Source: Candidatus Eiseniibacteriota bacterium (GTDB taxonomy: Bacteria > Eisenbacteria > RBG-16-71-46). From it: a stretch of DNA of 60,596 bases. The position numbers and the translations under genes are program-made. The notes beneath the pieces were generated by a model, which worked only from the letters and a program-made list of their open reading frames with translations, had not been told where the DNA came from and searched no databases. Of the stretch, positions 36,906 to 52,828 are shown in pieces (positions within the stretch are counted from its first letter, which is position 1; every line of letters starts with the position of its first letter). The stretch covers positions 1 to 60,596 of the forward strand of contig JABFRW010000023.1 in the NCBI GenBank assembly GCA_013140805.1, written 5' to 3'.

Positions 36906-37061
36906 GGGGAACTCCTGCTCGGTGAGAGGGCAACGTGCGAGATGTGGATCCGAGGGTTCAACTCCTCGTTCGGGGCACAGAGGCGTGACCCTACTGCGCG
37001 GATTCCGGTGGCTCCTAGCGAAATCGCCCGCATTCAGCCGGTGTGGTCGCGGCGATCGAGT

Positions 37062-37106
37062 TGGTGGCCCCGGCTGGAGTCGAACCAGCGGCACGCGGTT
37101 TAGGAA
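37062..37106 (-). repeat. 45-nt exact copy of the 3' part of tRNA-Arg(CCT) (att-type direct repeat, distal copy)
   Basis: tggtggccccggctggagtcgaaccagcggcacgcggtttaggaa is identical letter for letter to 41247..41291. It covers the anticodon loop through CCA. The 5' half of the tRNA is absent here. Confidence 0.9.
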
Positions 37107-37193: not shown

Positions 37194-37801
37194 TCACTTG
37201 TCTCCGCTTTCCGTCGGCAGACCGGCATCGATCCAGTCCTTCTGGAGGTTCTGTGCGATGTAAAGAATCTTGACGGCCCTGCCGGTAGACGCCATCGCTG
37301 CGTATGCGGGCCGCATGTTTGGGCAGTCGGTCCACGGACAGCAGCCGCAGTACAGGACGACCGGCTTCGTCCGCGGCAGCTTCCGGACTGCGTCGCGCAG
37401 GGCCTGCAGGCCCTCGGGTTTCGAGGCAGGCCAAAGTATCGCGAGCCGGCGATGTGTCCACCTCGGTAGAGGACGTGGTAACCGACGTGCAGCACAGCGG
37501 GGCGCTGCGCAACTGGGCCTGCGAGCGCCTCCCCGAACTCCTTGACGTGGATCAGGCTCGCCTCCGGGATCGATTTCGCGACCGGTGCCACTGAATCCGC
37601 CGCTCCCGAATCGGCGCTGTCCGGTCGGTCGGCCGCGCTCGAAGCCAACTGGGTTCCACCGGCACGCCCGCTCACGGGCCCGAAAGCCATGAGCCAACCG
37701 ATCGCGAAGAGCGTGACGAGGGCCATCAGCAGCCACGATGCACGATGCGTCTTGTCCACTGGCAAGCCTCTCCCTGATTGGTTCGTGTACGTGGATGACA
37801 T
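37194..37801 (-). pseudogene. membrane-anchored rhodanese-like sulfurtransferase, interrupted by a 1-nt frameshift near 37430
   Basis: Frame 1 (from 37801): TM anchor, then ...LHVGYHVLYRGGHIAGSRYFG. Frame 2 continues PASKPEGLQALRDAVRKLPRTKPVVLYCGCCPWTDCPNMRPAY...DWIDAGLPTESGDK-stop at 37194. The junction is at the ggcc run 37429..37432. A sequencing error cannot be excluded. Confidence 0.65.
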
Positions 37802-37825: not shown

Positions 37826-38983
37826 CTACATCCAGCCTCGGAGCCAGGATTGCTCAAGCAACACCTTGCCGAGATGCCAGCGACGGGACGGGGCCTGGAC
37901 AGCGACGGTGGGCAGCGGCTCGCCATAGAAGTCGCCCTTCCCAAATCCGGCCTTCCCGTCGCCCGCCTCGATGAAGCACTCGCCGAACCCGGTGAAGCGA
38001 GCCTCGGCCCCGCGGCCGGTGATCGCTCGAACGATGTTCTTGGCGACCACCTGGGCCGCGGAGTGCGCGAAGACGCCCGCCTTCGGAAGCGGCTTGCCCA
38101 TCTTGAGCGGGACCGAGGTGACGTCGCCGATGGCGTAGACGTTTGGAAAGCGGGTCGCGAAAGTGTGGCGATCCACTTCGATCCATCCGCCCTCCGCGCA
38201 CAGACCCGATCTGCTCACCACCTGGGGCACGTGATGCGGCGGAACGAATCCGAGCAAGTCGTAGGACGCGGCCGCTCCATTGGAGAACTGGATGGTGCGC
38301 GCAGACGGGTCGACACGAGTCACCTGATGCTCGGGGTGGTAGTTGATTCCCTTGCCCTCGACCATCTGGCGAACAGCCGCCGAGACTTGGGGCCCCGCGA
38401 CGCCCATCGGGCCAGGCTCCGCGGTGAACATGTCGACCTGGACATGCTCGCGAACTCGCCGCGCGCGGCAGGCGGCTTCGACCAGCATGGCCGCCTCGTA
38501 CGGGGCAGCCGGGCAGCGGTAGGCCGGTGCCGCGGTGAGGATCGCGATGCGTCCGCGTTTCAGGGAGGCCAGGCCGTCCCGGAATGCGATCACCCCCGTG
38601 AGTGAGTAGAGATCGTGGCCGCCGTCCACCAGGCCGGGGATCGCGCCGCCCGAGGTGGCGGCGCCGAGTGCGACCACGAGGTAGTCGGCGCTCAACGTCC
38701 TCCCGCCCACCACGACCTCCCGGCGGTCGGCAGCGATGCTTTCGATCTCGCCCGTCGTCACCGTGACGCCGCGGCGCAACAGCCGCCGAAGCGGCCGCGA
38801 GATCTGCTCGGGGCGGCGGGCTCCGACTAGCAGCCAGAGTAACGAAGGTGCGAAGACGAATGTCTCCTCACGGTTGACGAGCACGATCTCGTGGCGCGCG
38901 GGGAGGCGCTTTCGCAGGTCGTTGGCGACCACGAGCCCTCCAACACCCCCACCCAACACGAGAATGCGTTGCGTTCGTGTCAC
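37826..38983 (-). CDS. FAD-dependent pyridine-nucleotide-disulfide oxidoreductase, sulfide:quinone oxidoreductase-like
   Basis: GTG at 38983 preceded by GAGGGAGG. ILVLGGGVGGLVVA (FAD Rossmann) and VYAIGDV. Length about 385 aa. The context with DsrE and rhodanese genes supports a sulfide-oxidation role. Confidence 0.75.
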   Translation of the reverse strand: MTRTQRILVLGGGVGGLVVANDLRKRLPARHEIVLVNREETFVFAPSLLWLLVGARRPEQISRPLRRLLRRGVTVTTGEIESIAADRREVVVGGRTLSADYLVVALGAATSGGAIPGLVDGGHDLYSLTGVIAFRDGLASLKRGRIAILTAAPAYRCPAAPYEAAMLVEAACRARRVREHVQVDMFTAEPGPMGVAGPQVSAAVRQMVEGKGINYHPEHQVTRVDPSARTIQFSNGAAASYDLLGFVPPHHVPQVVSRSGLCAEGGWIEVDRHTFATRFPNVYAIGDVTSVPLKMGKPLPKAGVFAHSAAQVVAKNIVRAITGRGAEARFTGFGECFIEAGDGKAGFGKGDFYGEPLPTVAVQAPSRRWHLGKVLLEQSWLRGWM

Positions 38984-38997
38984 CTGTCCTCCCTCGA

Positions 38998-39357
38998 TCA
39001 GAAGATGAGCACCCGGTCGCTCGTCGCCACCCATTCGGTCAGCTCGTCCATGGTGCCGCGGTGTGATCCCTCTACGAGCTCATCCAGTGCGATACCGCGC
39101 GCGTCCATGCAGGTGCCGCAGACCCCCACCTCGCCGCCGCGCTTCGTCAACGCCGCGAGCATGTTCTGGACGTTGTAGTACCCGGCCGGTACGCGCTGAT
39201 TGGTCTTCGCGGCGGACGCGCTGTCGCCGAGCAGGAAGACTCTGATGCTGAGGCCCTCCCGCTTGGCAAGCGAGCCTGCAAGCCGGAGGCCGTTGTACAC
39301 CCGCTCGCTGCCATACGGGGCTTCATTGAAGACGAACAGAAAGCTGGCTGCGCTCAT
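38998..39357 (-). CDS. DsrE/DsrF-like sulfur-relay family protein
   Basis: 119 aa: FLFVFNEAPYGSERVYNGLRLAGSLAKREGLSIRVFLLGDS...VGVCGTCMDARG. Confidence 0.75.
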   Translation of the reverse strand: MSAASFLFVFNEAPYGSERVYNGLRLAGSLAKREGLSIRVFLLGDSASAAKTNQRVPAGYYNVQNMLAALTKRGGEVGVCGTCMDARGIALDELVEGSHRGTMDELTEWVATSDRVLIF

Positions 39358-39366
39358 TCATGCACC

Positions 39367-40035
39367 TCATGGAGGTCCTGATTCGATAGGAAGGCCGGCT
39401 CCCTGCCACTCGGGGAAACCGTCGGCCAGACGCCGCGCGCGGAATCCCCGGGACCGCAACAGCTCCACCGCATGCACTGAGAGCACGCAATAGGGGCCAC
39501 GGCAGTACGCCACGATCTCCTTCCGCTTGGGGAGCTTGGCCAAACGTCGTTTGAGCTCGTTGAGCGGGACAGACATCGCCCCGCGGATGTGTCCGGCCGC
39601 AAACTCCTCGGGCGGTCGCACATCGAGGATGAGCACGTCTTCCTCGCGCGCACGCTTGACCAGCTCGCGCCGGGAGACCGGTTCCAGCAGTTCAGGCGAC
39701 GCGAAATAGGTATGGATCAAGTCGTCGACCTCGGCGATCCGCGCCTGTGCCACGCGGCGGATGACCTGCAGGAGATCGAAGACTTCCGGCCCGGCGAGTC
39801 GGTAGAAGACCCGCGTGCCCTGCTTGCGAACATCGACGAGACGCACGGCCCGAAGTGCCTGGAGGTGGTGCGAGGTGTTCGCGGTTGGGAGCCGGGCTTC
39901 CGCTGCCAACACGTCGACGCTGCGCTCGCCTTGGGCGAGCAGCTCAAGTAGCTGAATCCGCTGGGCGCTCGAAACCGCCTTCCCGATGTGAGCGAAGTGC
40001 TCAAAGAGCCTCTGCGTGCCTTTCGTTCGATCCAT
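39367..40035 (-). CDS. ArsR/SmtB-family transcriptional regulator fused to a rhodanese domain
   Basis: ATG at 40035 with GAGGAG 5 nt upstream. The HTH reads RIQLLELLAQGERSVDVLAAEARLPTANTSHHLQALRAVRLV. The C-terminal rhodanese region reads ILDVRPPEEFAAGHIRGA...VAYCRGPYC. Confidence 0.8.
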   Translation of the reverse strand: MDRTKGTQRLFEHFAHIGKAVSSAQRIQLLELLAQGERSVDVLAAEARLPTANTSHHLQALRAVRLVDVRKQGTRVFYRLAGPEVFDLLQVIRRVAQARIAEVDDLIHTYFASPELLEPVSRRELVKRAREEDVLILDVRPPEEFAAGHIRGAMSVPLNELKRRLAKLPKRKEIVAYCRGPYCVLSVHAVELLRSRGFRARRLADGFPEWQGAGLPIESGPP

Positions 40036-40251
40036 GAATCTCCTCAAAGACCAACCCCGAGTTGCGCGTTATTGGGTCAGTGGCGGCTTTAGCGCGGTCA
40101 TCATGACGGCCTTGACGCCGAAGGCCTCGGCTGAGCTCTGCGTTGACTCCTTGCGGAACTGAAACCGTGGGACGACTGCAGATCGGACACGCACAAAACC
40201 GGACTCCTCGAGCAGTCGGAACATCTCTCCCTCCGGGAGAGCCCCGCCGAT

Positions 40252-40863
40252 TCAACTGGCCCACAGTTTGGGGTCATTGACGATCGATTGGGAGAGCTGT
40301 TTAGCGCTCACAATGTCGGTAATCGACATGCGACCACCTGGCCGGAGCACGCGGAATATCTCCTCCACGACCCGGCGCTTGCGAAAGGACAGGTTGATCA
40401 CTCCGTTCGAGATCACGACATCCACGGAAGCCGAGGGCACCGGGATGTCCTCCATGCGCCCTACCTGGCATTCCATCCGGGTCCCGGTCGCTGCCGCGTG
40501 CGCCTGGGCCTTGAGGCACATCGCGGGGTTGAGATCGACACCGATGACCTTGCCGCTTGGGCCTACGCGCCAGGAGGCGATAATCGCGTCGAGGCCAGCC
40601 CCACTCCCGAGATCGAGCACTGTCTCTCCCGGCTGGAGGTTGCTTCGCTCGTGCGGATTGCCGACTCCGGCGAACGAGCCAACGGCACTCACGGGCGCGC
40701 GATCAAGCCACTCGGGCGAGTAGCCGAACAACTCCGCTGCCTCGCGGCCGTGGAAGAAGTGGAAAGTACCCTTTGGGTTGTCGGCCACTTCCTGATACAT
40801 GCGGACGATCTCATCTTTGAGCACCGCCTCCAGAGAGGCCTGCGAGTCGACGGGATCAGCCAT
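40252..40863 (-). CDS. ArsM/UbiE-like class I SAM-dependent methyltransferase, terminated at an in-frame TGA; the homologous reading frame continues to 40069
   Basis: VLDLGSGAGLD (SAM motif I), VDVVISNGVINLS, LRPGGRMSITD. The ORF stops at ...DPKLWAS-TGA. The same frame then reads IGGALPEGEMFRLLEESGFVRVR...MMTALKPPLTQ-TAA (40069..40071), which still looks like the ArsM-family C-terminus. Confidence 0.8.
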   Translation of the reverse strand: MADPVDSQASLEAVLKDEIVRMYQEVADNPKGTFHFFHGREAAELFGYSPEWLDRAPVSAVGSFAGVGNPHERSNLQPGETVLDLGSGAGLDAIIASWRVGPSGKVIGVDLNPAMCLKAQAHAAATGTRMECQVGRMEDIPVPSASVDVVISNGVINLSFRKRRVVEEIFRVLRPGGRMSITDIVSAKQLSQSIVNDPKLWAS

Positions 40864-41246
40864 GTCGTGACCTCCTCATTCGTGTCTCCCAGATCGACGT
40901 GAGATTCGCACCGCAGCCTGGCGATCGAGCCCAGCCCATTCGATCAAGGCTCCTCAAATCATCAAACGTGTATTTGAATAACACACGAGCGACAGGTGAG
41001 TCAACGGAGCCAACTTTGCGCTGCCGCCAGACGCTCCACCTTGACCGCGGGCTCTCTGCGCGCTGGATCACGCGACTAGGAGGGCATGCCCCTCCATGCG
41101 GCACCGGCCTGGTCTCCCCTTAGGTCTCCCCTCAACGTCCGCTCCCGTCCCATTCTGTCCATTTCCGGCCAAACGGAGAGGGTGCCCCGGAAACCCGGAA
41201 CACCCTCTAGTCGACGCAGTTTCAGCGATGGTTGAGGCGATTTAGG

Positions 41247-41291
41247 TGGTGGCCCCGGCTGGAGTCGAACCAGCGGCACGCGGTTTAGGAA
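41247..41291 (-). repeat. proximal copy of the 45-nt direct repeat (3' part of the intact tRNA-Arg)
   Basis: Identical to 37062..37106. Confidence 0.9.
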
Positions 41292-41323
41292 ACCGCTGCT
41301 CTATCCGTCTGAGCTACGGGGCC
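41247..41323 (-). tRNA. tRNA-Arg (anticodon CCT), CCA encoded
   Basis: Hand-folded cloverleaf: acceptor GGCCCCG/CGGGGCC, D stem GCTC/GAGC, anticodon stem GCGGT/ACCGC with loop TTCCTAA, T stem GCTGG/CCAGC with loop TTCGACT, discriminator A, CCA. 77 nt. Confidence 0.9.
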
Positions 41324-41331: not shown

Positions 41332-42327
41332 TTACGTTTTGGTGGCTACCACTCTGGCTACCGCTTTTTCGCTGAGCCGCTCTGCCTCACGCATCACGAC
41401 GTCATCGCTGATGCGCGCGTACCTCTGGGTGGTCTCGATCGAAGCGTGCCCGAGGATCTGCTGCAAAGCAGCGAGACTGCCACCGCGTTCCAGCCACTGA
41501 CAAGCGAAGGTGTGCCTCGTCTGGTGGACGTGGAATCCTGCAAGCCCCGTTTGCCTTCGGATGTAGGCCGAGAACGACCCTGGTGAGAGGTTCGAGAATG
41601 GGACCAACCTGCCGACGTGACCCCTGACCTCCGAAAGCAGCTCCGGAGCGAGTGGCACACGACGCACCCTTCCCGACTTCGTCTTCGACACCACGAGAAA
41701 CCCCCTCTCAACATCCGAAGCTTGAGCCCTCGTCAGCTCTCCCCACCTGAGCCCCGTCCCGAGTGCCAGGCGGCACACGAAACCGTGCGGGTCGGGAAGT
41801 TGTTTGAGCGTTTCTGCATCCTCATCAGCAAGCCGGTCGGGCGGCTGCTCCTGAATCCGCGGCATGATCCTTCGCGGAAACGGCGAGCGATCCACCAGTC
41901 CTGCGTCCTCGGCCCAGTTCAGGAAGCACCGCACGTCAGCGAGGATGTGGCCCACGGTGTTCGGTGCGATGTCGTGCTTCTCGAGCCAGAGGCGGTACGA
42001 CCTGATGTGTTCCTTGGTCACGCGCTGCAGCAATGTCGCTCGGAAGAACGGGTCGATGTACCTCCTGACCCGAGCTGCTGCCATGACCTGTTGCTTTTCG
42101 TTCCTAGCGGTCGCGATGTACTGCCCGAGCCAGCGCTTCGCGGCCTCCGCGACCGTGACATCAGCTCGAGGCAAGTGATCTTCGTTCCGAAGCTTCTTCA
42201 ACTTGGTCTTCGCCTCGGAGAAGTCCTCGCCGAGTGAGATCCAGACGTCCCGGCCGGCGAATCGCTTGCGGAAGTAGTACCCGCCCCTGCCCTTTCGCTT
42301 GATCATGTTCTTGGGCAGCTTCGGCAT
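41332..42327 (-). CDS. tyrosine recombinase / phage-type integrase
   Basis: ATG at 42327 with AAAGGAGGG upstream. GLRWGE, HVHQTRHTFA, LGHASIETTQRYARI catalytic motifs. It ends 8 nt from the 5' end of tRNA-Arg. Confidence 0.9.
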   Translation of the reverse strand: MPKLPKNMIKRKGRGGYYFRKRFAGRDVWISLGEDFSEAKTKLKKLRNEDHLPRADVTVAEAAKRWLGQYIATARNEKQQVMAAARVRRYIDPFFRATLLQRVTKEHIRSYRLWLEKHDIAPNTVGHILADVRCFLNWAEDAGLVDRSPFPRRIMPRIQEQPPDRLADEDAETLKQLPDPHGFVCRLALGTGLRWGELTRAQASDVERGFLVVSKTKSGRVRRVPLAPELLSEVRGHVGRLVPFSNLSPGSFSAYIRRQTGLAGFHVHQTRHTFACQWLERGGSLAALQQILGHASIETTQRYARISDDVVMREAERLSEKAVARVVATKT

Positions 42328-42329
42328 CT

Positions 42330-42500
42330 TCAGCCCTCCTTTCGGGCCTGAAGCCACCGGAACACGTCGCCACGTTCGAACCGTAACACACGGCCGAACC
42401 GGATATGCGGCAGGCCCCGCCGGGAGACCAGCCGGCGAACGGTTTTCGGGCTGACACTGAGGTAATCTGCGACCTGTTGGATCGTGAGTAGCTGGTCCAC
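42330..42500 (-). CDS. excisionase / AlpA-MerR-type HTH DNA-binding protein
   Basis: My translation from the GTG at 42500 (AGGAGGGG upstream): VDQLLTIQQVADYLSVSPKTVRRLVSRRGLPHIRFGRVLRFERGDVFRWLQARKEG-stop, 2 nt before the integrase ATG. It is below the ORF-track size cutoff. Confidence 0.7.
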   Translation of the reverse strand: MDQLLTIQQVADYLSVSPKTVRRLVSRRGLPHIRFGRVLRFERGDVFRWLQARKEG

Positions 42501-42527
42501 GCTGTCCCCTCCTGTATTGGAGGAGCC

Positions 42528-43172
42528 TTGTCAGAAGAAAAGGAGTCGCTCTGGCGTCACCCGCTCCTGCACACGTTGCTCGGGGCAGTCTTGGGGGTCG
42601 CGGCGACGTTCGGTGGGACCTACTACGGCTTCCGACTCACCGTGCGGCATGAGCTTCAGAACTACCGGGACGATCTCATCCAGGCCCGGCTCGAAGAGAA
42701 CAAGTTCGACGACGCAAACGCCTCGGCGCTCGCCACGCAGCTCGAGCTCAATGAGGCCGTGGCGCGGAGTAACCTGCGGATGCTCGACGACGAGATCCGG
42801 ATCTATCCAGCCATCCGTGACCTCGTGCCGCTTGCCCCCATGCTCGAGTTTCAGGGTGTCGGACCGGGCGTGCGTTTCCCCGGGATGATTGGTCTCGATC
42901 CTGCGCTCCGAACCCAAGCGCTCAAGATCATGCTCGACGTGCGTGCGATCAACGGCAGTATCGCGCTGCGGGATGAGGTCAAGAAGTCACGCCAGTTCTC
43001 GGCTCTAGCTTTCGACGGCTCACGGCCTGGTGATCCCCAACCTGGAGACGCTGAGCGGGACTCGCTCAACAAGTACCTGCGAGATCACCATCGAAGAGTT
43101 CTGGGGCTGTCGAGTTCGTTTCTGGCTCGATTCGATTCGCTGACCCATCGCACGAGACCTGGGGAGAAGTGA
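42528..43172 (+). CDS. hypothetical single-pass membrane protein (214 aa)
   Basis: TTG start with GGAGGA upstream. One TM helix (LLHTLLGAVLGVAATFGGTYYGF), then a helical soluble region. I recognise no family. Confidence 0.5.
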   Translation: MSEEKESLWRHPLLHTLLGAVLGVAATFGGTYYGFRLTVRHELQNYRDDLIQARLEENKFDDANASALATQLELNEAVARSNLRMLDDEIRIYPAIRDLVPLAPMLEFQGVGPGVRFPGMIGLDPALRTQALKIMLDVRAINGSIALRDEVKKSRQFSALAFDGSRPGDPQPGDAERDSLNKYLRDHHRRVLGLSSSFLARFDSLTHRTRPGEK

Positions 43173-43344
43173 CCCTGGACAGTCCCGGCAGACGTGGCAA
43201 ACTGTAAAAGCTTGGCCCCAACTCGCATCGCGCGACGAACTCACCACCCAATGCTTTCAGGTATTGGTGGGTTCGTGTCTGCGGTAGTCGACTGATCCAC
43301 TATGGCGGTCGACTTCCGGGGCAATCCCGTCAGAGGGAGATCTC

Positions 43345-44310
43345 GTGGAGCTACACATGCTTCAGACTCTTGAGTACCTCGCGTTCGAAGGCGTTCCAGA
43401 TGGGGGTCTGGAACTAGACGATTATCTCCGACTCGGAACGAAGCCGGCGATCTCTAGAGAGCTGATGGAAAAGCGGTTCTTCGATCTCATCAGCAAGCGG
43501 GAGGGCGAAGAACTCGTGTCGCGGCCGAGTTTTCTCTTCAACCTGACGAGGACGACCCCTCCGAACTGTGACGAGCTGACTGGACATGCAATCACGCGGA
43601 ACTTCTTGGTTCGTTCGCAGATCTTCATGTTGGCGCTCTGGTTAGTCCGCGACAACAGCGGCAATCCGGGAAGCGTGTTCTTCATGGTCAACAACGAGGA
43701 TGGCTCGGACAATTCGCTGAGCGAGCGGCACAGCGCGTACTACTTCACCGCGGAATGCACGCTAGTTCATGCCACCTTCACGCGATCGGAGCTCGACACC
43801 GCCATCGGCTACATGAAGCAGCTCGACGCCATCATTCCAAAGGTGGCTCGTGCGCTTGAGGCGGGTCGACCAACCGGCCTGGTTCACGCCTCCCGGATCG
43901 CAAGGTGCCTATACTTTGCTCAAGCAGCTCGTGGCGCAGATGATCCGAGCGTCAAGGCGGCGTTCTACTGCATCTGCTTTGAGACCCTCTTTTCTACGGA
44001 CATTAACGGCGTGGCCCATCGCGTCGCAGAACGCTCTGCATTCTTGCTCGGAACCACTGGCACGGAGCGCCGAGAGATCTACAAGAATATCCACGACCTC
44101 TATGGGTATCGCTCAACGGTCGTGCATGGCGGTCATCTCAAGCAGAAGGATGAGGCAAAGCTTCGGGCAGTGGTTGTACTTGGGGATGCACATCTTCGAA
44201 ACGCGATCTTGAAGATCATCGAGAACGAGCCGTTGTTGAACCTGTTTGGGAAGAACGACGAAGGTGCCATTCGTGAACATTTCTTCAACGAACTGTTTCC
44301 AACGAACTGA
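43345..44310 (+). CDS. HEPN-domain protein (Abi/ApeA-like single-protein defence candidate)
   Basis: The C-terminal ~130 aa form helical HEPN-like segments with the Rx4H motif in IHDLYGYRSTVVHGG. The N-terminal ~190 aa are unassigned. The gene is markedly A/T-richer than the surrounding DNA. Confidence 0.55.
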   Translation: MELHMLQTLEYLAFEGVPDGGLELDDYLRLGTKPAISRELMEKRFFDLISKREGEELVSRPSFLFNLTRTTPPNCDELTGHAITRNFLVRSQIFMLALWLVRDNSGNPGSVFFMVNNEDGSDNSLSERHSAYYFTAECTLVHATFTRSELDTAIGYMKQLDAIIPKVARALEAGRPTGLVHASRIARCLYFAQAARGADDPSVKAAFYCICFETLFSTDINGVAHRVAERSAFLLGTTGTERREIYKNIHDLYGYRSTVVHGGHLKQKDEAKLRAVVVLGDAHLRNAILKIIENEPLLNLFGKNDEGAIREHFFNELFPTN

Positions 44311-44755
44311 GAGCGCGCTCGGCCTCCGATCCAGGCGCGGCTGAGGATAACGAGGCCTAGACGGCCCCAGTCCAGTTGCTACACTCACTTGGACTTTCCG
44401 CAGGCTCGGAACTCGGCTCAACGCCTTGAAGTTCCGCCCTAAACGCCGCCTCCGTTCCTCTCCGGCCCAAATGTCCCGCCCTGCCCCTAATGCGGCCGGC
44501 TAGCCGCCTCGCTACCGCTCGGCTCTGGCCATTTGGGCCGGACACTCACGGTCGGCCGAGCGCGCACCGCCTATCGGCCGCAACTTCGTAATGGTCGACG
44601 GCCCCGAACCCGTCCACTGAGTGCGCCGCCCTTCGGCCTCACGGCCCCAGTCAATCCGCGAGCGAGTTACTCCGACTCGCGTTCCAAGCCCTCCCCGACT
44701 GACACCGGCCATCAAGTAGGCGGGCCGATCACCGGCCCGGAAACCGGAGGGACTC

Positions 44756-44890
44756 ATGACGCAGAACCTGCAAGACGAATTGGCGAAGCTAGACGCGGAA
44801 ATCAAGGCGGACAGCGAGCGACTGAAGGCGAAGAAGAAGGCGCGGCGCCGCCTGGCAGGCGCCCTCGAGCAACTCAACCTCTCCCTTTAG
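44756..44890 (+). CDS. small coiled-coil protein (44 aa)
   Basis: GGAGGG 5 nt upstream of the ATG. MTQNLQDELAKLDAEIKADSERLKAKKKARRRLAGALEQLNLSL. Below the track size cutoff. Confidence 0.4.
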   Translation: MTQNLQDELAKLDAEIKADSERLKAKKKARRRLAGALEQLNLSL

Positions 44891-44900
44891 GGGGCAATCA

Positions 44901-44972
44901 ATGTGGGTCCTGCAGGTGCTCTTCGTCCTCGGCGTGTACGTCTGGGTCTGGGTGTACTGGTACAGGCGGTAG
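44901..44972 (+). CDS. possible 23-aa hydrophobic peptide
   Basis: The ATG is 10 nt after the preceding stop, with AGGGGG upstream. MWVLQVLFVLGVYVWVWVYWYRR. Very short, so speculative. Confidence 0.25.
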   Translation: MWVLQVLFVLGVYVWVWVYWYRR

Positions 44973-45331
44973 AAGTTCGCTTTGGCGGGTGTCTGCTCCG
45001 CAGCTTGACGGTGAAACCCGACGCTGGGCTACCGGCCCGCCGAACTCTATTTGGAGCCTCACAGACGGCTCGTAGCGTCTTCGGCCCGGAGTACCGGGCG
45101 CTCGCCTTCTCACCGATTGTTCAGCCCTGAGTTTTTCATTCGCAACGCGCATTCAAAGTAAGCCTGCCTGTAGGTCTCCCAAGCGTAGCGGTTGGGGTCC
45201 CCCGGCCGTCAATGTAGTTCGCTGCGGCGACTCCACATTGACCGCCACCCCACTAACCGCTTTTGCGCTTGAGCCCACAGGCGGCCGAGCGCCGGGGACT
45301 TTGCATCAACTCGGCGGAAAGGGATCGGCGT

Positions 45332-45442
45332 ATGGAATTCCAAGTCACGCCGGAGAGTTCGGAGTGCTGCAAAGCCCCGATGGTCGGGGGTGTGCAGTGT
45401 GAAGCGTGCGGGGCAGACGGCAAGCGAGTCGTGGAGGATTGA
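45332..45442 (+). CDS. possible 36-aa Cys-rich (zinc-ribbon-like) peptide
   Basis: MEFQVTPESSECCKAPMVGGVQCEACGADGKRVVED, ending 4 nt before the ssb ATG. Weak RBS (aaaggga). Confidence 0.3.
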   Translation: MEFQVTPESSECCKAPMVGGVQCEACGADGKRVVED

Positions 45443-45446
45443 GGCC

Positions 45447-45863
45447 ATGGACCTCAACAAAGTCACGCTCATCGGAAACGTAGTGCGCGACCCGGAGTCG
45501 AGGGTCAGCGCGTCGGGAGATGGCTCACAACGCCTCTGCCGCTTCAGCCTCGCAACGAACTACGCGTGGCAGGACGCGAAGACGAAGGCGAGGAGAGAGG
45601 CGGTCGACTTTCACGACTGCATCGCTTGGGGAAAGCTGGGCGAGATCATCGCGCAGTACGTGAGAAAGGGCTCCAAGGTGTACGTCGAAGGGCGCTTGCG
45701 GAAACGACCGTACGTCAACGCGGACGGTCAACGCCGCATGGCCAACGAGATCGTGGCGGACAACATGATCATGCTCGGGCACCGCGCGAAGGCGCCGAGC
45801 ACGGTCAACGCAACGCTTGTGTCGGACAGTGTCGACGGCAACGGCGTGGAGGAGGGTGCATGA
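45447..45863 (+). CDS. ssb: single-stranded DNA-binding protein
   Basis: GGAGG upstream of the ATG at 45447. OB-fold signature: NKVTLIGNVVRDPE...CRFSLATN...FHDCIAWGKLGEIIAQYVRKGSKVYVEGRLR. There is no canonical acidic DDDIPF tail. Confidence 0.85.
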   Translation: MDLNKVTLIGNVVRDPESRVSASGDGSQRLCRFSLATNYAWQDAKTKARREAVDFHDCIAWGKLGEIIAQYVRKGSKVYVEGRLRKRPYVNADGQRRMANEIVADNMIMLGHRAKAPSTVNATLVSDSVDGNGVEEGA

Positions 45864-46084
45864 CCTCCACCAAGCAGATGACCTGCCCGAAGAGTCCGAA
45901 CTGCTCAAGGTTTGTGGAGGAGGTCGAGGTTGAGGGAGGTGCGTCATACGTTCTCGACGCGAACTTCCGTCCCTATGAGCTCACCGACATTCGAAACGTT
46001 CGACTCGTTCACCGCTCGACAAACCGGGTTTGCGCCGTTCACGGCGTCGCTCCGTTCGTCAGACTGCCCGCGTTCGCCAGGTAG
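45860..46084 (+). CDS. hypothetical protein (74 aa)
   Basis: ATGA overlap with the ssb stop. MTSTKQMTCPKSPNCSRFVEE... No recognised family. Confidence 0.45.
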   Translation: MTSTKQMTCPKSPNCSRFVEEVEVEGGASYVLDANFRPYELTDIRNVRLVHRSTNRVCAVHGVAPFVRLPAFAR

Positions 46085-46144
46085 TCAACCGCTCCGAGGG
46101 CTCCGAAAGGGGCTCTCGGAAGCTCTCACCCACGACCCACCCTC

Positions 46145-47125
46145 ATGACCAAACTATCCAAGAATCGAACCCGGCTCCTCGAGGCCATACGCGACCTGCG
46201 GGTCGCGGACCTCGAGGTCCTCACGGCCCTGCTCGCAAGCGAGCGGGAGCCGGGACGTCATGCCTTTGGTGCCTGGGGAGTGCGGCGAGCGTGCGAAGCC
46301 TTGCTCGAGCAGGGGCTACTTCATCGCCTGTGGAAGTTCCGTGACCCCAAGTTCCGAATCAATCGCGGCTCCGCGCGTCAGGTGTTCCTGTTGAGCGGAA
46401 AGGGGGCTGTGGTTCTAGGCTCGCCCGCGGTCCGCGCCGAGAGATGGTTCGAGTACTTGAAGGATCCGCGCAAGGAATACGTACTCGAGCATGAGCTGAT
46501 GATCGCACGGTTCCATGCCGCGCTTCTGAGGGCCCAGCAGGTCAGGCCCGATCTCCTCACACTGATCGCCTGGGAACAGGGTGAAGGGACGGAGATCAAA
46601 GGCGAGGGAGTCCGAATCCGACCGGACGCGTTCTTCGTAATGCGCTCAGAGGCGGTGAGGCTCCGCTGGAACGTCTTCCTTGAAGCGGACACTGGAAATG
46701 AGCGTATCGAGAGCAGAGACAGCAAGCGTCGCACTATTGAGAAGAAGATCCGCCGCTATGGCGAGGCGGACGCGAAGGAAGTCGTGCAGCGGCAGTTCGA
46801 GGTGTCGCGCTTCAGCGTCTTGTTCATGTCACCGAGGCGTTCGGATCCGAGTGCCTTGTCTGGTCGCGAGAGCAGCATCCTGTCAGCGATCCAGAGGCAT
46901 GGTCGCATCAACGAACACGCGCTCAACTTCTACCGGGTCGTCAGCGAGACGGCCATCATCGAGGCGCTGCAGAACCCAGAGCGACTCTTCGAGGAGGTCG
47001 TGACTCACGGAAACGGTCGAGCCTACCCAATCATTGCACTTCCTGCTTCACTGAAAGCGCTGGCCGGCAGCTCGTCCAGCTCCATTCCTTCTCAGGAATT
47101 GCCTCCCACGCACGAGGCACCGTGA
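46145..47125 (+). CDS. replication-relaxation family protein (putative relaxase/initiator of the element)
   Basis: N-terminal winged-helix-like region (RLLEAIRDLRVADLEVLTALL). Core: HELMIARFHAAL...IRPDAFFVM...VFLEADTGNE...IEKKIRRY, which I recognise as the Replic_Relax pattern. Confidence 0.6.
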   Translation: MTKLSKNRTRLLEAIRDLRVADLEVLTALLASEREPGRHAFGAWGVRRACEALLEQGLLHRLWKFRDPKFRINRGSARQVFLLSGKGAVVLGSPAVRAERWFEYLKDPRKEYVLEHELMIARFHAALLRAQQVRPDLLTLIAWEQGEGTEIKGEGVRIRPDAFFVMRSEAVRLRWNVFLEADTGNERIESRDSKRRTIEKKIRRYGEADAKEVVQRQFEVSRFSVLFMSPRRSDPSALSGRESSILSAIQRHGRINEHALNFYRVVSETAIIEALQNPERLFEEVVTHGNGRAYPIIALPASLKALAGSSSSSIPSQELPPTHEAP

Positions 47126-47238
47126 GCCTTTCGGATCGCACGGGCTTTGCTCCGGAGTGCGAAAGTCCGAAGGGTGCGCCCAGGTTCCCTTACCTGCCCG
47201 ATCAGCGCGTTCCCTGATGAGAACCACTGTCGGCCGGC

Positions 47239-47279
47239 AAACGAAAGGCCCCCCGATTTCTCGAGGGGCCGTTTCGTTT
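47239..47279. terminator. bidirectional hairpin terminator between convergent genes
   Basis: aaacgaaaggcccc-(12 nt)-ggggccgtttcgttt. The A/T-rich flanks give a U-tract on both strands. It overlaps the stop of the 47278..47859 gene. Confidence 0.6.
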
Positions 47280-47859
47280 ACAGCAGCTGCCGCTTGTCGA
47301 CGTACAGCTCTTCAGGCGGCGAAGCGAACCACGGCTCAGGTGACTTCCAACCATTCCGGCGAGCGGTCAACTTCTTCATCGCCCAGTACTGCTCGCTGAG
47401 CGGCGCACGGTCACAAACGCGGGACTCGCCGTTTACCGTGAGCGTTCCGTAGTCGACCTTCTCGCCGTTCTTGACTGCTCTGCGCTTACGCTGGAAGAGA
47501 GCCCACGTCTCTTTCTCGGCATCTCTAATCGCAGCCTCGAAATCGCGTCCGAGCTTGCGATCGTTGCTGTCAAGAAAGATGGCGTGAAACGCTGCGGCCC
47601 TGGCGAGGCCGTTCATCACGACCTGCTGCGTCCGCGTGCGCTTCCACAACTCCCCTTCCTTCGTCCTGAATCCCATCGCGTTCATCAGGTCCGCCACCTT
47701 CTGGTAGGGACGCCCCCTCGGGACACCCTTGCCATTGAGTGGAATCCATCCATCACGCGAGGCGTTCAGGAACAGTGCGATGATCCAAGCCTGAGCCTTA
47801 CTCTCGCACCCGCCGCACGTCGCGAGCGTGTGCCAGTACCGCTGACCATGACGCTGCAT
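47278..47859 (-). CDS. hypothetical protein (193 aa) with a recombinase-domain-like segment
   Basis: VADLMNAMGFRTKEGELWKRTRTQQVVMN resembles the 'LN..G..T..G..W....V' segment of serine-recombinase accessory domains. There is no catalytic domain. Confidence 0.45.
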   Translation of the reverse strand: MQRHGQRYWHTLATCGGCESKAQAWIIALFLNASRDGWIPLNGKGVPRGRPYQKVADLMNAMGFRTKEGELWKRTRTQQVVMNGLARAAAFHAIFLDSNDRKLGRDFEAAIRDAEKETWALFQRKRRAVKNGEKVDYGTLTVNGESRVCDRAPLSEQYWAMKKLTARRNGWKSPEPWFASPPEELYVDKRQLL

Positions 47860-48295
47860 CTGGCCCCCGGCAAAGCCAGAGGTCGATCGCTTTCGTCATG
47901 TTCCCTCCGCCTTGCGGAGCTGGCTCTAGGACTTGGCGAGCTTCGTGCGCGGTTCTCATCTTGGCGCGTGACTGTTGACTCTTGTGCTTGCCGATCTTCC
48001 CAACGCCGAGGCTGGGTTCGATCTGCCGATAAAGGCGGGCAAGTCGTCGTTCAACAGCGGGCTACCACAAGTTGCCGCGGTGGTTCCTAACCCGACGGGG
48101 CTCCAAACATCTGATCCGTCGCTGTCACGTCCCACTGCTCTCGCCAGTCCACAACTGCCCGCACCGCCACTTATGCCGGCAGCCCTCGAGGATCGAGGCA
48201 CACCGATTATCCGAGAGCTGCCGTAGGAGAATCAAGTGTCCTGACACGCCCGCTGGAGTGAGCCGGCAATCCCGCCGGCTAACCAGGAGGCTCGA

Positions 48296-48493
48296 ATGCC
48301 TTGGTTCTTTCGGCCCCGCCGCTACCACTCCCCCCGTACCGGCTCGCCCGTCTGCGCGGGACAGCCCGGTCGCTTTCACCGCCACATCCACACCCAGCGA
48401 CGTGGCAACGGCATCCCCGCAGGCTCCCACCTCCTCCATCAGCTCTTTGTGTGCCCGCGGTGTGGCGCGCGGCACTGGAGGTACGGAGGGTGA
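48296..48493 (+). CDS. small Cys/His-rich (zinc-ribbon-like) protein, first gene of the T4CP operon
   Basis: Strong AGGAGG 5 nt upstream of the ATG. The 65-aa product contains ...PVCAGQPGRFHRH...FVCPRCGARH. Its TGA overlaps the next ATG (TGATG). Confidence 0.45.
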   Translation: MPWFFRPRRYHSPRTGSPVCAGQPGRFHRHIHTQRRGNGIPAGSHLLHQLFVCPRCGARHWRYGG

Positions 48494-48606
48494 TGGCTGA
48501 GTTCTTCAACAACGCTTGGGCTTTTGTCGTCAACGTGTCCGCCTTGGTGTTCTTGCTTTGGCTAATCGGGCAGGTCATCAAGGGCATGTTTCGAGGAGGG
48601 AAATGA
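48493..48606 (+). CDS. 37-aa single-TM peptide
   Basis: MAEFFNNAWAFVVNVSALVFLLWLIGQVIKGMFRGGK. GGAGGG upstream. ATGA overlap with the next ORF. Confidence 0.4.
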   Translation: MAEFFNNAWAFVVNVSALVFLLWLIGQVIKGMFRGGK

Positions 48607-48737
48607 TGGATCAGATCACCCTGAAGCTCTCGTCAGTACTCGACAACGCCCTCATCAGCTTGGCTGCCGGCCTGCTGATGTCCCTGGTGGCCCACTGCTG
48701 GAAGGCCATCTCCTCTCGCGCCCGGAGGTTCAAGTGA
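48603..48737 (+). CDS. 44-aa single-TM peptide
   Basis: MMDQITLKLSSVLDNALISLAAGLLMSLVAHCWKAISSRARRFK. Overlapping start/stop on both sides. Confidence 0.4.
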   Translation: MMDQITLKLSSVLDNALISLAAGLLMSLVAHCWKAISSRARRFK

Positions 48738-48913
48738 ACGACGACCTCATCGTCTACGAGCAGGACAGGTACCGGTCACTCGAGGAGTATCACCGCGCCC
48801 GTCGGGCCCAGGCGAATCTGGCGCATGCGGCCCTCGACTTCGTGCGTGAGCGTCCGGGAACGAGCCTCGTCATCGGTCTCGCGGCACTCTACATCCTCTC
48901 GCGGAGGCGCTAG
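48734..48913 (+). CDS. 59-aa protein with C-terminal TM helix
   Basis: GTGA overlap with the previous ORF. ...ERPGTSLVIGLAALYILSRRR. Confidence 0.4.
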   Translation: MNDDLIVYEQDRYRSLEEYHRARRAQANLAHAALDFVRERPGTSLVIGLAALYILSRRR

Positions 48914-49162
48914 GTGAAGTCCGTCCTGAAGTGGCTCTACCTCAAGACCTGGAAGGAGCCGAAGGACATTCGAGGCGTGGGCTGGACGATCTTGTTCTGG
49001 CTCACGCTTCTCAACGGAATTGTGTGTTCCTCGTACCTGTGCAGGACTCGCGAGGGCGCCATAGCGCTTTTGGGATTCTTCGCGTGCAGCGCGTGGCTCG
49101 ATCACCTCAACTCCAAGCCGAAGAGGCTGGGCCGAGAACTCCCGTACCGGAGGCGTCGGTGA
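48914..49162 (+). CDS. 82-aa two-TM protein (candidate detached membrane anchor of the T4CP)
   Basis: The GTG comes directly after the previous TAG. Two helices: GWTILFWLTLLNGIVCSSYL and AIALLGFFACSAWL. Its stop overlaps the GTG of the ATPase gene (GTGA). Confidence 0.45.
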   Translation: MKSVLKWLYLKTWKEPKDIRGVGWTILFWLTLLNGIVCSSYLCRTREGAIALLGFFACSAWLDHLNSKPKRLGRELPYRRRR

Positions 49163-50538
49163 ACCTGGCCTACGGACAACCGCTCGGCGGTGGGGAGGCT
49201 CGGGACATCGAACTCTCCCCTCCCGACCGCCTTCGGTCGGTCTACTTCATCGGCTCCTCCGGCTCCGGCAAGTCGTCAGCGCTCGAGACGCTCTTGGTCC
49301 AAGACATCCACGACGGCGTCGGGTTCGGCGTTTTCGACGTGGAGGATCGGTTGGTGCCGCGTGTGCTACGGCATCTGGTCGACGCCGGCAGGGAGCCGGT
49401 GCTGATCGACCCAACGATTGGTCCCAGTCGCCTCAACGTCCTTCACGTTCCCGAAGGTGTTCATCCACACACTGTCGTCGAAGGGTGCCTGCAGGCGTTC
49501 AGGCGCGCATGGTTCGATTCCTGGGGAGCAAGGCTCGAGGATCTTCTGCGCCATTCGCTCATCCTGTTCGTCGAACAAGGCCTCACTATCGCTGAACTCC
49601 CCCACTTCCTCAGCGATGCGGCCTGGCGCGAGCGTGTTGCTCAAGCGTCGCAGGATCAGCGGGCGCGCTCCTACTTTCTCGACCACCTTCGCGCGATTAG
49701 TCAGCGCGAGGTGCGTGTCTGGGTCGAGAGCACGCGCAACAAGGCGGCAGCCTTCGCCAACAATCCGTTCATTCAGCCTTCCATCGCCGCGGAGGACTGC
49801 CTCGACTTCCAGAAACTCATGGACGAAGGGCGGCCGCTCATCGTCAACCTCCCCGAGACGATTCTCGGCGATTCAGGAAAGCTCTTGGCGATGCTCATCG
49901 TGTCGAGGCTTTATCAGGCGGCTCTGCAGCGCCGAGAAGGCGCTCGTCCGTGGTTCCTGTACGCCGACGAGTTTCAGAACTTCGCAACTCGTTCGTTCAT
50001 CGACCTGGTGACCAGGAGCCGCAAGCGCGGCGTCGGATCGGTCATAGCTCACCAGACGATCAGTCAGCCGCCGTTCGACAGCAATCCCGAGTTCCTCTCC
50101 TCTCTCCTCGCGAACACTGCGGTCCATGTGGTCATGCAAGTGGGGCGCGAGGATGCGGAGCGATTCGCGAAGGAGATCTTCCCCGCCTCCGGCACCGAAG
50201 CAAAGCGCAGGAAGAAGCACTGGATGTGGGGCGACTTCGGCGACCCGCAGTTCTACTCGGTCAACGAAGAACGCGAAGCACAGTGCCGCGAACTAGAGCA
50301 TCAGCATCAGCGCGAGTGCTTCGTGAAGGTGAAGCGAAATGACGGTACAGAGGTCTTCGTGGCTCAGTCCTACGACCTACCTGAGCCTGACGCCACGCAG
50401 GAGCAGGGAGCGCACCTCGCGGCAGAGGCCGTCACCAGGTTCGCTCCAGGAGCCCCACGCGACCGTCTGGCGCGATTTCTGGCGCAGAAGCGTCGCAGAG
50501 CCGTGGACGAGGGAGAGCAGCCAGGAGAGCCCGACTAG
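49159..50538 (+). CDS. type IV coupling protein-like ATPase (TraD/TraG/VirD4 superfamily), soluble domain only
   Basis: Walker A FIGSSGSGKSS at about residue 30. Walker B-like WFLYADEFQNF. HQTISQ and RKRGVGSVIAH motifs typical of TraD/T4CP C-terminal domains. There is no N-terminal TM segment if the gene starts at the GTG at 49159. Confidence 0.75.
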   Translation: MNLAYGQPLGGGEARDIELSPPDRLRSVYFIGSSGSGKSSALETLLVQDIHDGVGFGVFDVEDRLVPRVLRHLVDAGREPVLIDPTIGPSRLNVLHVPEGVHPHTVVEGCLQAFRRAWFDSWGARLEDLLRHSLILFVEQGLTIAELPHFLSDAAWRERVAQASQDQRARSYFLDHLRAISQREVRVWVESTRNKAAAFANNPFIQPSIAAEDCLDFQKLMDEGRPLIVNLPETILGDSGKLLAMLIVSRLYQAALQRREGARPWFLYADEFQNFATRSFIDLVTRSRKRGVGSVIAHQTISQPPFDSNPEFLSSLLANTAVHVVMQVGREDAERFAKEIFPASGTEAKRRKKHWMWGDFGDPQFYSVNEEREAQCRELEHQHQRECFVKVKRNDGTEVFVAQSYDLPEPDATQEQGAHLAAEAVTRFAPGAPRDRLARFLAQKRRRAVDEGEQPGEPD

Positions 50539-50867
50539 GGGCTTGTTTTCCACAGGGTGGCTCTAGCGAGATTCCCGCATCGGCGTACCATGCAATCCGC
50601 GGCGCCTCGGCTGCGACTCCCCCCGTCCCGTGCTTGGAACGCGAGAAGAGTGTTCAGGGATCCTCTCCCTGATCGACCGAACTGAGCGGCCCCGCTGAAG
50701 CCCTCGCGCGGGCCTTACGCCCCTCCCACATCGGGGCACGGAGTGCCTGAAGGATGGCGGCGCTCGCTAGACGTCGCTCCGGCCCACACTGAACTCCGCT
50801 CTTTTCAAACAACCCTCCGTCCTCTGCCCACGCATTGTGCGCGAGCAGTCATCCGGAGGGTTCACCA

Positions 50868-51116
50868 ATGGCTGAGAAGTCGTTTCTCGCGTCCGTAAAG
50901 GACGAGATCACGGAAGTGTTCGCCGCACAGTACGACGACCTCGTAGAGGTCACGACCGACGAGGAAAAGCTCGGCGCATCACTCAAGGCCGTTCAGAAGC
51001 GAGTCTGGGAGATCGTCGAGAAGCAGCTCAAGCAGAGCTACCTCAATGGCAAGAAGGCTGGCAACGGAAAGGTCTCGCTCGAGCAGCGCAAGCCCAACCC
51101 CTTCCGCAGGGAGTAG
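50868..51116 (+). CDS. hypothetical acidic/helical protein (82 aa)
   Basis: GGAGGG 8 nt upstream of the ATG at 50868. MAEKSFLASVKDEITEVFAAQYDDLVEV... Confidence 0.5.
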   Translation: MAEKSFLASVKDEITEVFAAQYDDLVEVTTDEEKLGASLKAVQKRVWEIVEKQLKQSYLNGKKAGNGKVSLEQRKPNPFRRE

Positions 51117-51280
51117 CCACGCGCCGTCGTATGCGCAAGCGCACCACGCGCCACCCCCCCCCGCTCGCGCGGAGGACCGAACCACGATTGAGACCTTTGC
51201 CGGATTGTCCGGCGGGTCAATGACGACTGGACGCCTCTGTGGCGACTTCAGGGAGGTGATCCTGACGAAAGGAGTCAGTC

Positions 51281-51706
51281 GTGCTCGTTTGCGAGCTGAC
51301 GACGCGCCGCTACGCCAACAAGCCGGTGGTGTCGATCCGCGGCCCCGACGACGTGGTCGCGATTCCTGCCATCCGGCGATTGCGAAAGGCCAAGCGCGAA
51401 CACTTCGTCGCGCTCTTGCTGAACGCTCGTCACGAGGTCGAATCACTCGAGACGATTTCGATCGGTAGCCTCAACGCCTCGATCGTCCACCCAAGGGAAG
51501 TCTTCCTACCGGCGGTCAAGGCCTCGGCCGCCTCGCTTGTGCTGGTGCATAACCATCCCAGCGGGGATCCGGAACCGAGTGAAGAAGATCTCTCGATCAC
51601 CAAGCGCCTCGTCGAAGGCGGCGAACTGCTCGGCATCGGAGTTCTCGATCACGTGATCATCGCTAGTCGAGGCGTGGTCTCGTTCAGAGCCAGGCAACTG
51701 CTGTGA
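51281..51706 (+). CDS. radC: RadC-like JAB/MPN domain protein
   Basis: AAGGAG 6 nt upstream of the GTG. LVLVHNHPSGDPEPSEEDLSITKRL is the JAMM motif HxHPSGxxxPSxxD. Confidence 0.85.
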   Translation: MLVCELTTRRYANKPVVSIRGPDDVVAIPAIRRLRKAKREHFVALLLNARHEVESLETISIGSLNASIVHPREVFLPAVKASAASLVLVHNHPSGDPEPSEEDLSITKRLVEGGELLGIGVLDHVIIASRGVVSFRARQLL

Positions 51707-52818: not shown

Positions 52819-52828
52819 ATTCGCTCTT

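Follow-up and report, generated by a model that had tools for sequence, protein, structure and literature searches.

A probable selenocysteine codon, annotated as a stop, in an ArsM-like methyltransferase gene of Candidatus Eiseniibacteriota and Gemmatimonadota

Introduction

Selenocysteine (Sec) at the active-site position considered here is already known from ArsM-type methyltransferases, having been in print since at least 2008, when arsenite S-adenosylmethyltransferase (PRK11873) was listed as a selenoprotein family (Zhang and Gladyshev GOS 2008; PMC2398784). Peng et al. (2016; PMC5029168) counted 39 organisms with a Sec arsenite methyltransferase family, and a 2026 review (PMC13188914) lists arsenite methyltransferase with the motif UxxG (U being Sec), citing Fomenko et al. 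(2007). The same UxxG motif is listed for each of three NCBIfam models, namely NF041537 (ArsM/AhpD), NF041536 (ArsM/DUF2284), and NF047649 (methyltransferase/UXPK-star), which are attributed to Haft and Tolstoy (2025) in the table of that review (PMC13188914). Here, we describe a related gene that public annotation ends at an in-frame TGA codon. It occupies positions 40069..40863 of the minus strand (-) of contig JABFRW010000023.1 (assembly GCA_013140805.1) of a Candidatus Eiseniibacteriota bacterium; the whole stretch of that contig that was analysed, 60,596 nt (60.6 kb) long, is referred to as ‘the window’. Comparison with related genes makes it very probable that the UGA of this methyltransferase encodes Sec and that the gene is a genuine selenoprotein gene.

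In ArsM, As(III) is bound at a site made up of Cys174 and Cys224 with Cys72. Canonical ArsM and AS3MT enzymes (CmArsM 4FR0, 4FSD, 6CX6; CrArsM 5EVJ; AS3MT 8XT7) share with the present protein the class I S-adenosylmethionine (SAM) core and the SAM motifs, at ~29% identity and a TM-score of 0.6-0.7 to the query, and the equivalent of Cys224 is present, as the presumed Sec. The present protein differs from them in lacking two of the three As(III)-ligand/catalytic cysteines and the ArsM C-terminal domain (264 versus ~320-390 amino acids [aa]), and in its sulfur-related genomic context.

The likeness to the catalogued Sec arsenite methyltransferases extends to the fold, the Sec position (U-x-x-G, within ...LWxxU(I/L)xGA), a putative intragenic Sec insertion sequence (SECIS) downstream of the UGA, and the existence of Cys homologues. 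In contrast to that family, however, the present protein scores below the PRK11873 cutoff, is without equivalents of Cys72 and Cys174, has its presumed Sec fixed clade-wide, and is annotated in GenBank as 203 aa. It also differs from the proteins of NF041537, NF041536, and NF047649, being single-domain with one Sec and having no AhpD, DUF2284, or UXPK-star extension. What is new is an unannotated clade, apparently uniformly Sec-containing, within a branch that is not canonical ArsM.

The TGA codon and the downstream reading frame

The open reading frame (ORF) of the methyltransferase begins at ATG 40863..40861, with a Shine-Dalgarno-like GAGGAGG, read from the sequence, 7 nt 5′ of it (40871..40877, -); a GGAG-type motif stands at this place in most of the related loci described below. 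The frame reaches ...NDPKLWAS and then the TGA at 40254..40252, and the N-terminal part up to that point (203 codons; 40255..40863, -) is the part that public annotation presents as a complete ‘methyltransferase domain-containing protein’. Past the TGA, the frame starts with IGGALPEGEMFRLLEESGFVRVR, ends with ALKPPLTQ, and is closed by TAA at 40071..40069; the next gene has its ATG (40035..40033) 33 nt further on. The complete post-TGA reading up to the TAA is IGGALPEGEMFRLLEESGFVRVRSAVVPRFQFRKESTQSSAEAFGVKAVMMTALKPPLTQ. This C-terminal extension of 60 codons plus TAA (40069..40251, -) would be made only upon UGA recoding. The full-length coding sequence (40069..40863, -) would then comprise 264 codons, including that for Sec, plus the TAA, and would specify an ArsM-like class I SAM-dependent methyltransferase, as assigned from its translation and from Pfam and PDB matches. 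The TGA itself (40252..40254, -) is read as Sec in the motif U-I-G-G (UxxG) on the strength of the ArsM alignment, the conservation of the TGA, and the Cys homologues; the Sec would be residue 204, and the peptide expected to span the UGA, if recoded, is LWAS-U-IGGALPEGEMFR. The methyltransferase contains this single TGA, and the end of the protein coincides with the end of the methyltransferase fold. An earlier, sequence-only reading of the window had pointed out the TGA and the continuation of the frame, and when the sequence was re-read, its coordinates for the ORF, the TGA, the extension, and the hairpin discussed below proved exact to the base.

Related genes were sought among proteins and genomes. 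In a collection of 5.8 billion proteins, treated as 90%-identity clusters, >100 protein clusters at 83-94% identity were found, nearly all of them exactly 203 aa long and all ending in ...LWAS. A genome scan covering one genome per species yielded 220 relatives, and the best 80 loci were analysed; these are mostly from Gemmatimonadota, with several from Candidatus (Ca.) Eisenbacteria and a few from bins labelled otherwise, and one additional metagenome contig (L081) was included. One orthologue (L010) lies on CP070722.1, a complete chromosome of Gemmatimonadota bin464. A TGA follows DPKLWA[S/A] in 80/80 genome loci and in L081, that is, in 81/81 related genes (78-94% protein identity). An in-frame peptide of ~59 residues is conserved past the TGA in all 80 loci, at 70-95% amino-acid identity, and the downstream frame is intact in every locus that reaches its end, one of them (L052) having an in-frame internal deletion.

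The variation in this downstream stretch is of the coding type. Mean per-column entropies at codon positions 1/2/3, taken over 79 sequences, are 0.22/0.11/1.11 for the 50 codons that precede the TGA and 0.36/0.25/1.13 for the 56 that follow it. At codons +1 to +3 (I-G-G), immediately past the TGA, third positions vary freely (entropy 0.93, 1.82, and 1.88). Because the codon-position entropy is that of coding sequence, the post-TGA codons appear to be translated, and they are under protein-level purifying selection.

The genetic code of this organism is standard rather than reassigned, since TGA, the commonest ordinary stop in the window, ends 16 of its 31 Pfam-supported genes, including the two directly downstream of the methyltransferase. 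The sole apparent full-length homologue in the databases (P0001) has Trp at the site, but its contig (L081; JGI contig Ga0589500_04617505) has TGA there. The public call on that contig (gene 93-908) renders the TGA as Trp, giving a 271-aa protein. The Trp is a gene-caller artefact of a code-4-style translation of TGA, which can mislead comparisons of Sec and Cys forms.

A hairpin of bacterial SECIS type

A perfect 7-bp inverted repeat, CUCUCCC-GGA-GGGAGAG, begins 10 nt past the TGA (40225..40241, -), with its 5′ arm CUCUCCC at 40241..40235, its loop GGA at 40234..40232, and its 3′ arm GGGAGAG at 40231..40225. The loop, which is 3 nt long and begins with GG, lies 17 nt from the UGA. Bacterial SECIS elements have been described by a loop N1-G-[G/U]-N-N2 with N1 and N2 paired, an upper stem of 4-16 bp, a UGA-to-loop distance of 16-37 nt, and a minimum free energy (MFE) of <= -7.5 kcal/mol (PMC13188914). 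The present hairpin agrees with all four (C-GGA-G or U-GGA-A; 7 bp; 17 nt; MFE -11.5 kcal/mol). The sequence-only reading had judged it ‘loosely compatible’ with a bacterial SECIS; the compatibility stands, whereas ‘loosely’ understates the agreement. Like the Escherichia coli fdhF-type element and bacterial SECIS elements in general, it is an intra-ORF stem-loop 3′ of the UGA, with GG at the start of a small loop and a stable stem. It differs from the fdhF type in its unrelated sequence, its loop of 3 nt (which opening of the covarying closing pair would widen to 5 nt), and its lack of an evident bulged U.

The helix is maintained across the 81-sequence alignment, in which 99.1% of the cells in the proposed helix are paired. 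At the closing (top) pair, 45 sequences have U-A, 30 have C-G, and 4 have U-G, with zero mismatch and never C.A; where the codon differs between CCG (Pro) and CUG (Leu), a codon three positions on differs synonymously between GAG and GAA to match. When mapped onto a neighbour-joining tree of the upstream 540 nt, the closing pair must have changed independently at least 4 times in its 5′ base and 8 times in its 3′ base. Third-position entropies for codons +4 to +10 are 0.17, 0, 0, 0.98, 0, 0.33, and 0.10, the value of 0.98 (codon +7) belonging to the covarying base, and the Gly codons just upstream score 1.8-1.9. Synonymous variation is, to judge from these values, suppressed in the hairpin stem.

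Two more distant TGA forms (L082 and L083; ~44% identity) also have an in-frame continuation and a hairpin at the same offset. In L083, the hairpin is GCUCUGCC-GGA-GGCAGAGC, in which a C-G pair of the window is replaced by G-C, a compensatory change, and in L082 it is GCUCUGC-UCAAA-GCAGAGC. The GGAGG of the hairpin in the window and the ATG that follows it (40222-40234, -) were judged incidental; they could affect translation of the 3′ part of the gene under selenium scarcity.

Protein family, fold, and active-site columns

With Cys in place of the stop, the 264-residue product matches Pfam Methyltransf_31, Methyltransf_25, and Methyltransf_11, and its best solved relatives by sequence are CrArsM 5EVJ, CmArsM 4FR0/5EG5, and human AS3MT 8XT7 (phmmer E 1e-25). 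HMMER alignments to the solved ArsM chains put the TGA in the column of the Cys of ‘ilygeCLGGAL’, residue 224 counted along chain 5EG5. The sequence-only reading had placed the TGA at the third catalytic Cys of ArsM by recalling the motif around it, and both the motif and the placement were correct. It had also held that the other two ArsM cysteines are replaced, as indeed they are: the Cys174 column has the Gly of ‘SNGVINL’ (‘SNC(174)VCNL’ in ArsM), and the Cys72 column has the Val of ‘AGVGNP’ (G-C72-G in ArsM). This replacement is, moreover, a trait of the whole subfamily and not of a single gene.

A homologue with 77% identity was modelled with AlphaFold2 (pLDDT 94.3, pTM 0.90), and four elements of the core fold (helix, strand, helix, strand) come after the Sec site in the model. 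When this model was compared to the PDB with Foldseek, the best 13 fold matches were all ArsM/AS3MT (probability 1.00, TMq 0.58-0.71). On this model, it is the C-terminal extension that would complete the methyltransferase fold, with two helices and the final two beta-strands, and a product ending at residue 203 would be without the active-site residue and two core beta-strands.

The three NCBIfam models for Sec-containing ArsM, with E-values from 1e-61 to 1e-53, rank among those that score best on the methyltransferase domain, but all are far below cutoff: NF041537 at 205.2 (cutoff 510), NF041536 at 178.8 (cutoff 575), and NF047649 at 183.8 (cutoff 460). NF008823 (PRK11873) gives 204.8 bits, below its cutoff of 263, and Cys homologues of the same branch, at 197-229 bits, fall below it likewise.

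The wider family was surveyed with a HMMER scan of 1.84 billion cluster representatives (50% cluster library) and an alignment of 22 rows (A2). The gene belongs to a branch of ~260-aa methyltransferases with the hallmarks FAG(V/T)GNP, SNGV(I/L)NL, and LW(A/T)x[C/U](I/V)xGA. Within the Gemmatimonadota/Eisenbacteria clade, relatives at >=60% identity in the cluster library all end at the TGA, and many lineages at 40-48% identity stop exactly at the Sec column, by which they are recognized as further TGA forms. Among full-length homologues at ~40-44% identity, LWAxC(I/V)xGA is present in 11/12, the remaining one having Trp (A2); the nearest Cys forms are ~44% identical. The sequence-only reading had proposed to look for orthologues with TGA or Cys at the site; TGA is found in all 81 close genes and Cys in the distant full-length homologues. 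In the Cys174 column of A2, 21/22 rows have SNG, one has GNG, and none has Cys; the Cys72 column holds Gly, Val, or Thr. The canonical ArsM domain that forms the first domain of a related protein (P0122) keeps GCGNP, SNCV, and CCLGGAL, and because it retains all three cysteines, the loss of two of them defines the branch.

Several relatives (P0133, P0122, P0140, and P0144) are fusions with TusA, AhpD/CMD, MerC, or DsbA-like domains. The partner of TusA is a Cys homologue, and the chain with AhpD/CMD also bears the canonical ArsM domain. These four kinds of domain are thiol, sulfur, or soft-metal partners.

Sec or another outcome at the UGA

The reading of the UGA as Sec follows from the retention of the TGA in 81/81 genes, the selection on the sequence downstream, the Sec/Cys pairs, and a hairpin that obeys the bacterial SECIS rules and covaries. 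It is one of two explanations that the sequence-only reading had offered, and these observations support it; we infer that the residue inserted is Sec. Several results weigh on the other side. Neither the window nor ~0.8 Mb of related loci yielded selA, selB, selD, or tRNA-Sec. The search consisted of ARAGORN (window and all loci), Pfam scans of 43 window ORFs, which revealed no SelA, SelB, or SelD domains, and tblastn with an approximate E. coli SelD sequence as query, which had no match in the window or the related loci. The apical loop of the hairpin is of the smallest size allowed. A hairpin of similar quality at such spacing follows 20 of the 1587 TGA triplets in the window (1.3%), and at this base rate the hairpin alone is only suggestive; its conservation across 81 genes puts it beyond chance. 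Rfam gave no SECIS match, either for the window at the gathering threshold or for 40150..40300 at E up to 10, a null that carries no information, as each bacterial SECIS model covers a specific family. Finally, the hairpin includes GGAGG and an ATG is conserved at codon +10, which makes re-initiation formally possible.

The other explanation in the sequence-only reading was a recent TGC/TGT-to-TGA nonsense mutation, to which an assembly error may be added; the gene would then be a pseudogene and the 60 codons a relic. A 1-nt frameshift in the rhodanese gene of the same module, which the reading had taken as support for decay, and att-like repeats beside mobile DNA would be in keeping with this. 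The frameshift is real in the sequence but irrelevant to the TGA, since the intact module of the closest relative (L001) combines an intact rhodanese with the same TGA. Given a TGA in 81/81 genes at 78-94% protein identity, coding-type variation and constraint downstream of it, and a covarying hairpin, a recent mutation is refuted and we give this explanation negligible weight; copies of one contaminant are likewise excluded by the protein divergence of 6-22% among loci. It is extremely unlikely, too, that the gene is split, with translation stopping at the TGA (203 aa) and restarting at ATG 40224..40222 through the GGAGG of the hairpin, so that two polypeptides assemble. There is a 51-aa ORF from that ATG (40069..40224), GGAGG or AAGGAG precedes the ATG by 5 nt, and the Met is nearly invariant in the clade; but codons +1 to +9, which lie before it, keep I-G-G-A-L-(P/L)-E-G-E with third positions free at +1 to +3, as expected if they are translated, and the codons past the TGA align with the CIGGAL motif of Cys homologues. 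The distant Sec homologues L082 and L083, moreover, have the TGA and the hairpin without an ATG at this place, and a split product would lose the catalytic-site residue. Programmed read-through, in which the UGA is decoded as one of the standard amino acids (Trp, Cys, Arg, or Gly) by a suppressor or near-cognate tRNA with stimulation by the hairpin, would dispense with the Sec machinery, which was not seen in the window or related loci. Downstream hairpins can stimulate read-through in some systems, and one gene caller gave W. That W is no more than the code-4-style translation of TGA, however, and the column in which the codon stands is that of a catalytic Cys and pairs Cys with TGA many times across the family, as is characteristic of Sec; in spacing and GG loop, the hairpin conforms to the consensus for SelB-type SECIS elements, and the site is already catalogued as Sec. 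We therefore consider non-Sec read-through very unlikely.

Substrate and proposed mechanism

Under the recoding mechanism that we propose, with high confidence, the UGA at 40254..40252 would be recoded instead of terminating translation. SelB-GTP-Sec-tRNA(Sec) would be recruited by the intragenic hairpin in the role of a bacterial SECIS, and the ribosome would go on for 60 more codons, which complete the Rossmann-type fold. With one selenolate and no partner thiols, an ArsM-type As(III) site cannot form, and the methyltransferase is probably not a canonical As(III) methyltransferase. With low confidence, we prefer a chemistry in which the single selenolate would covalently hold a soft chalcogen or metalloid beside the SAM methyl group. 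The tether to Sec would be a selenenyl-sulfide or selenenyl-selenide, or would hold a soft metalloid; methylation by SAM would follow, and the methylated product would be released.

As the likeliest substrate, we tentatively suggest sulfane sulfur or selenium donated by carriers of the rhodanese, DsrE, or TusA type, a possibility favoured by the recurrent neighbours related to sulfide:quinone oxidoreductase (SQR), DsrE, and rhodanese and by the TusA, AhpD, MerC, and DsbA fusions. Among the 80 loci, the genes beside the methyltransferase include ArsR-rhodanese in 8, SQR-like in 8, and DsrE in 6, in at least 4 arrangements, a recurrence that we estimate to be far above chance placement of genes present in one to few copies. 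That the clade as a whole is a selenium-dependent chalcogen methyltransferase, for which an SQR-like sulfide oxidase would supply the carriers and whose products would be methanethiol, methylselenol, or dimethyl species, is a more elaborate proposal and a doubtful one. Two findings count against a chalcogen substrate: the sulfur-gene synteny is limited to a minority of loci, and the fusion partners of relatives are mixed (TusA, AhpD, MerC, DsbA, FGE, and GNAT). A conserved operon was considered and rejected, as ArsR-rhodanese, DsrE, and SQR-like genes are found in a minority of the 80 loci and the other neighbours vary; the neighbourhood is a hint only.

The protein might also be a genuine As(III)/methylarsenite SAM methyltransferase, with Sec in place of Cys224, that serves arsenic detoxification in the manner of ArsM/AS3MT. 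Its best sequence and fold matches are indeed ArsM/AS3MT, the best NCBIfam models are those for arsenite methyltransferases, JGI labels many orthologues ‘arsenite methyltransferase’, and a regulator of the ArsR family adjoins the gene. We nonetheless think this improbable. The equivalents of Cys72 and Cys174 are Val and Gly here and are absent subfamily-wide, whereas the canonical domain of P0122 keeps them, and every NCBIfam ArsM score is below cutoff (204.8 against 263 for PRK11873). None of arsB, acr3, arsC, and arsH is among the recurrent neighbours of the 80 loci, and the ArsR protein is fused to rhodanese and stands beside DsrE and SQR-like genes, a context of sulfur and not of arsenic.

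The role suggested here has a functional parallel in MddH, MddM1/2, MddA, and TMT1A/B, in which SAM-dependent chalcogen methylation is tied to sulfide detoxification. These enzymes differ, however, in being of the UbiE/UbiG type (~200 aa) or of the membrane ICMT type, and the likeness is functional speculation; a link to the MddH/MddM thiol methyltransferases was rejected, the families being different and no link by homology having been found. A word search of two Mdd papers returned neither ‘selen’ nor an ArsM or arsenite term.

Recognition of the UGA as Sec corrects the gene model clade-wide: GenBank, JGI, and ENA calls end the protein at 203 aa in >100 clusters, losing the active-site residue and two core beta-strands. 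It further indicates, from the gene sequences, that many Gemmatimonadota and Ca. Eisenbacteria decode Sec; neither group is mentioned in the selenoprotein papers that were searched by word. ArsM has been widely reported in Gemmatimonadetes by surveys, and arsM survey counts may include enzymes of different substrate or selenium-dependent activity. A methyltransferase with the lone Cys/Sec of the ArsM cysteine set, repeatedly placed beside SQR, DsrE, and rhodanese, is a tractable lead towards a new substrate. Should the chalcogen proposal be true, Gemmatimonadota and Ca. Eisenbacteria would have an unrecognized, Sec-requiring form of sulfide/selenide detoxification and volatile production, and some of the ‘arsM’ genes counted in environmental surveys would not be arsenic genes.

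Gene neighbourhood and mobile surroundings

Four further genes on the minus strand complete the module in the window. An ArsR-family helix-turn-helix (HTH) domain fused to a rhodanese domain (39367..40035, -; Pfam HTH_5 and Rhodanese) is likely the regulator of the module. It is followed by a gene for a DsrE-like sulfur-carrier protein (38998..39357, -; Pfam DsrE), a flavoprotein akin to SQR/flavocytochrome c sulfide dehydrogenase (37826..39034, -; Pfam Pyr_redox_2 and FCSD_central), and a rhodanese-like gene with a CGCCPW motif (37194..37801, -), which is interrupted by the 1-nt frameshift and appears as two overlapping frames. The rhodanese-like protein has a predicted N-terminal hydrophobic segment, and its frameshift consists of one base lacking in the C-run at ~37429-37430 (GGCCT, versus GGCCCT implied by the intact L001 orthologue); the split may reflect a true pseudogene or else a sequencing error in the homopolymer.

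The promoter region of the methyltransferase (~40962-40978, -) contains an imperfect palindrome, TTCAAATACACGTTTGA, of which a near-identical copy exists in L002. The palindrome may be an operator of the adjacent ArsR-rhodanese regulator. A conserved 5′ leader or riboswitch across the family was not found, upstream conservation being confined to the closest relatives.

In-frame extensions past TGA stops gave no convincing second selenoprotein in the window. The DoxX/BNR pair (4718-6259, +) was considered as a candidate and rejected as two ordinary adjacent genes: DoxX ends in TGA, and the BNR/sortilin-like gene follows in the same frame 12 nt on, with its own AAGGAG and ATG.

The five-gene, 4.1-kb module is flanked by a 63-nt direct repeat (37044-37106 and 41229-41291; 92% identity), in which the 3′-terminal 45 nt of tRNA-Arg(CCT) are joined to a further 18 nt; the tRNA-Arg(CCT) gene itself is at 41247-41323 (-). 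The repeats look like the attL and attR of an integrated islet without an integrase of its own. No att-like repeats were found around the same module in L001 and L002, where it is sited elsewhere. Beyond the tRNA, ~17 kb of mobile DNA extends over 41332-58444. Next to a tyrosine integrase (41332-42357), it has a small ORF that is HTH/excisionase-like by eye only (42330-42500), and it also carries SSB, a Replic_Relax protein, DUF932, and a GmrSD-type restriction enzyme, as well as another integrase (55368-56147) and the istA/istB pair of an IS21 element (56403-58444).

In the closest relative, L001 (stretches 4473-5849 and 4117-4611 of that locus), a MerR-like ORF precedes the methyltransferase, and a 458-aa membrane-protein ORF has a motif (RHPQY...) that by eye resembles the isoprenylcysteine carboxyl methyltransferase/MddA type.

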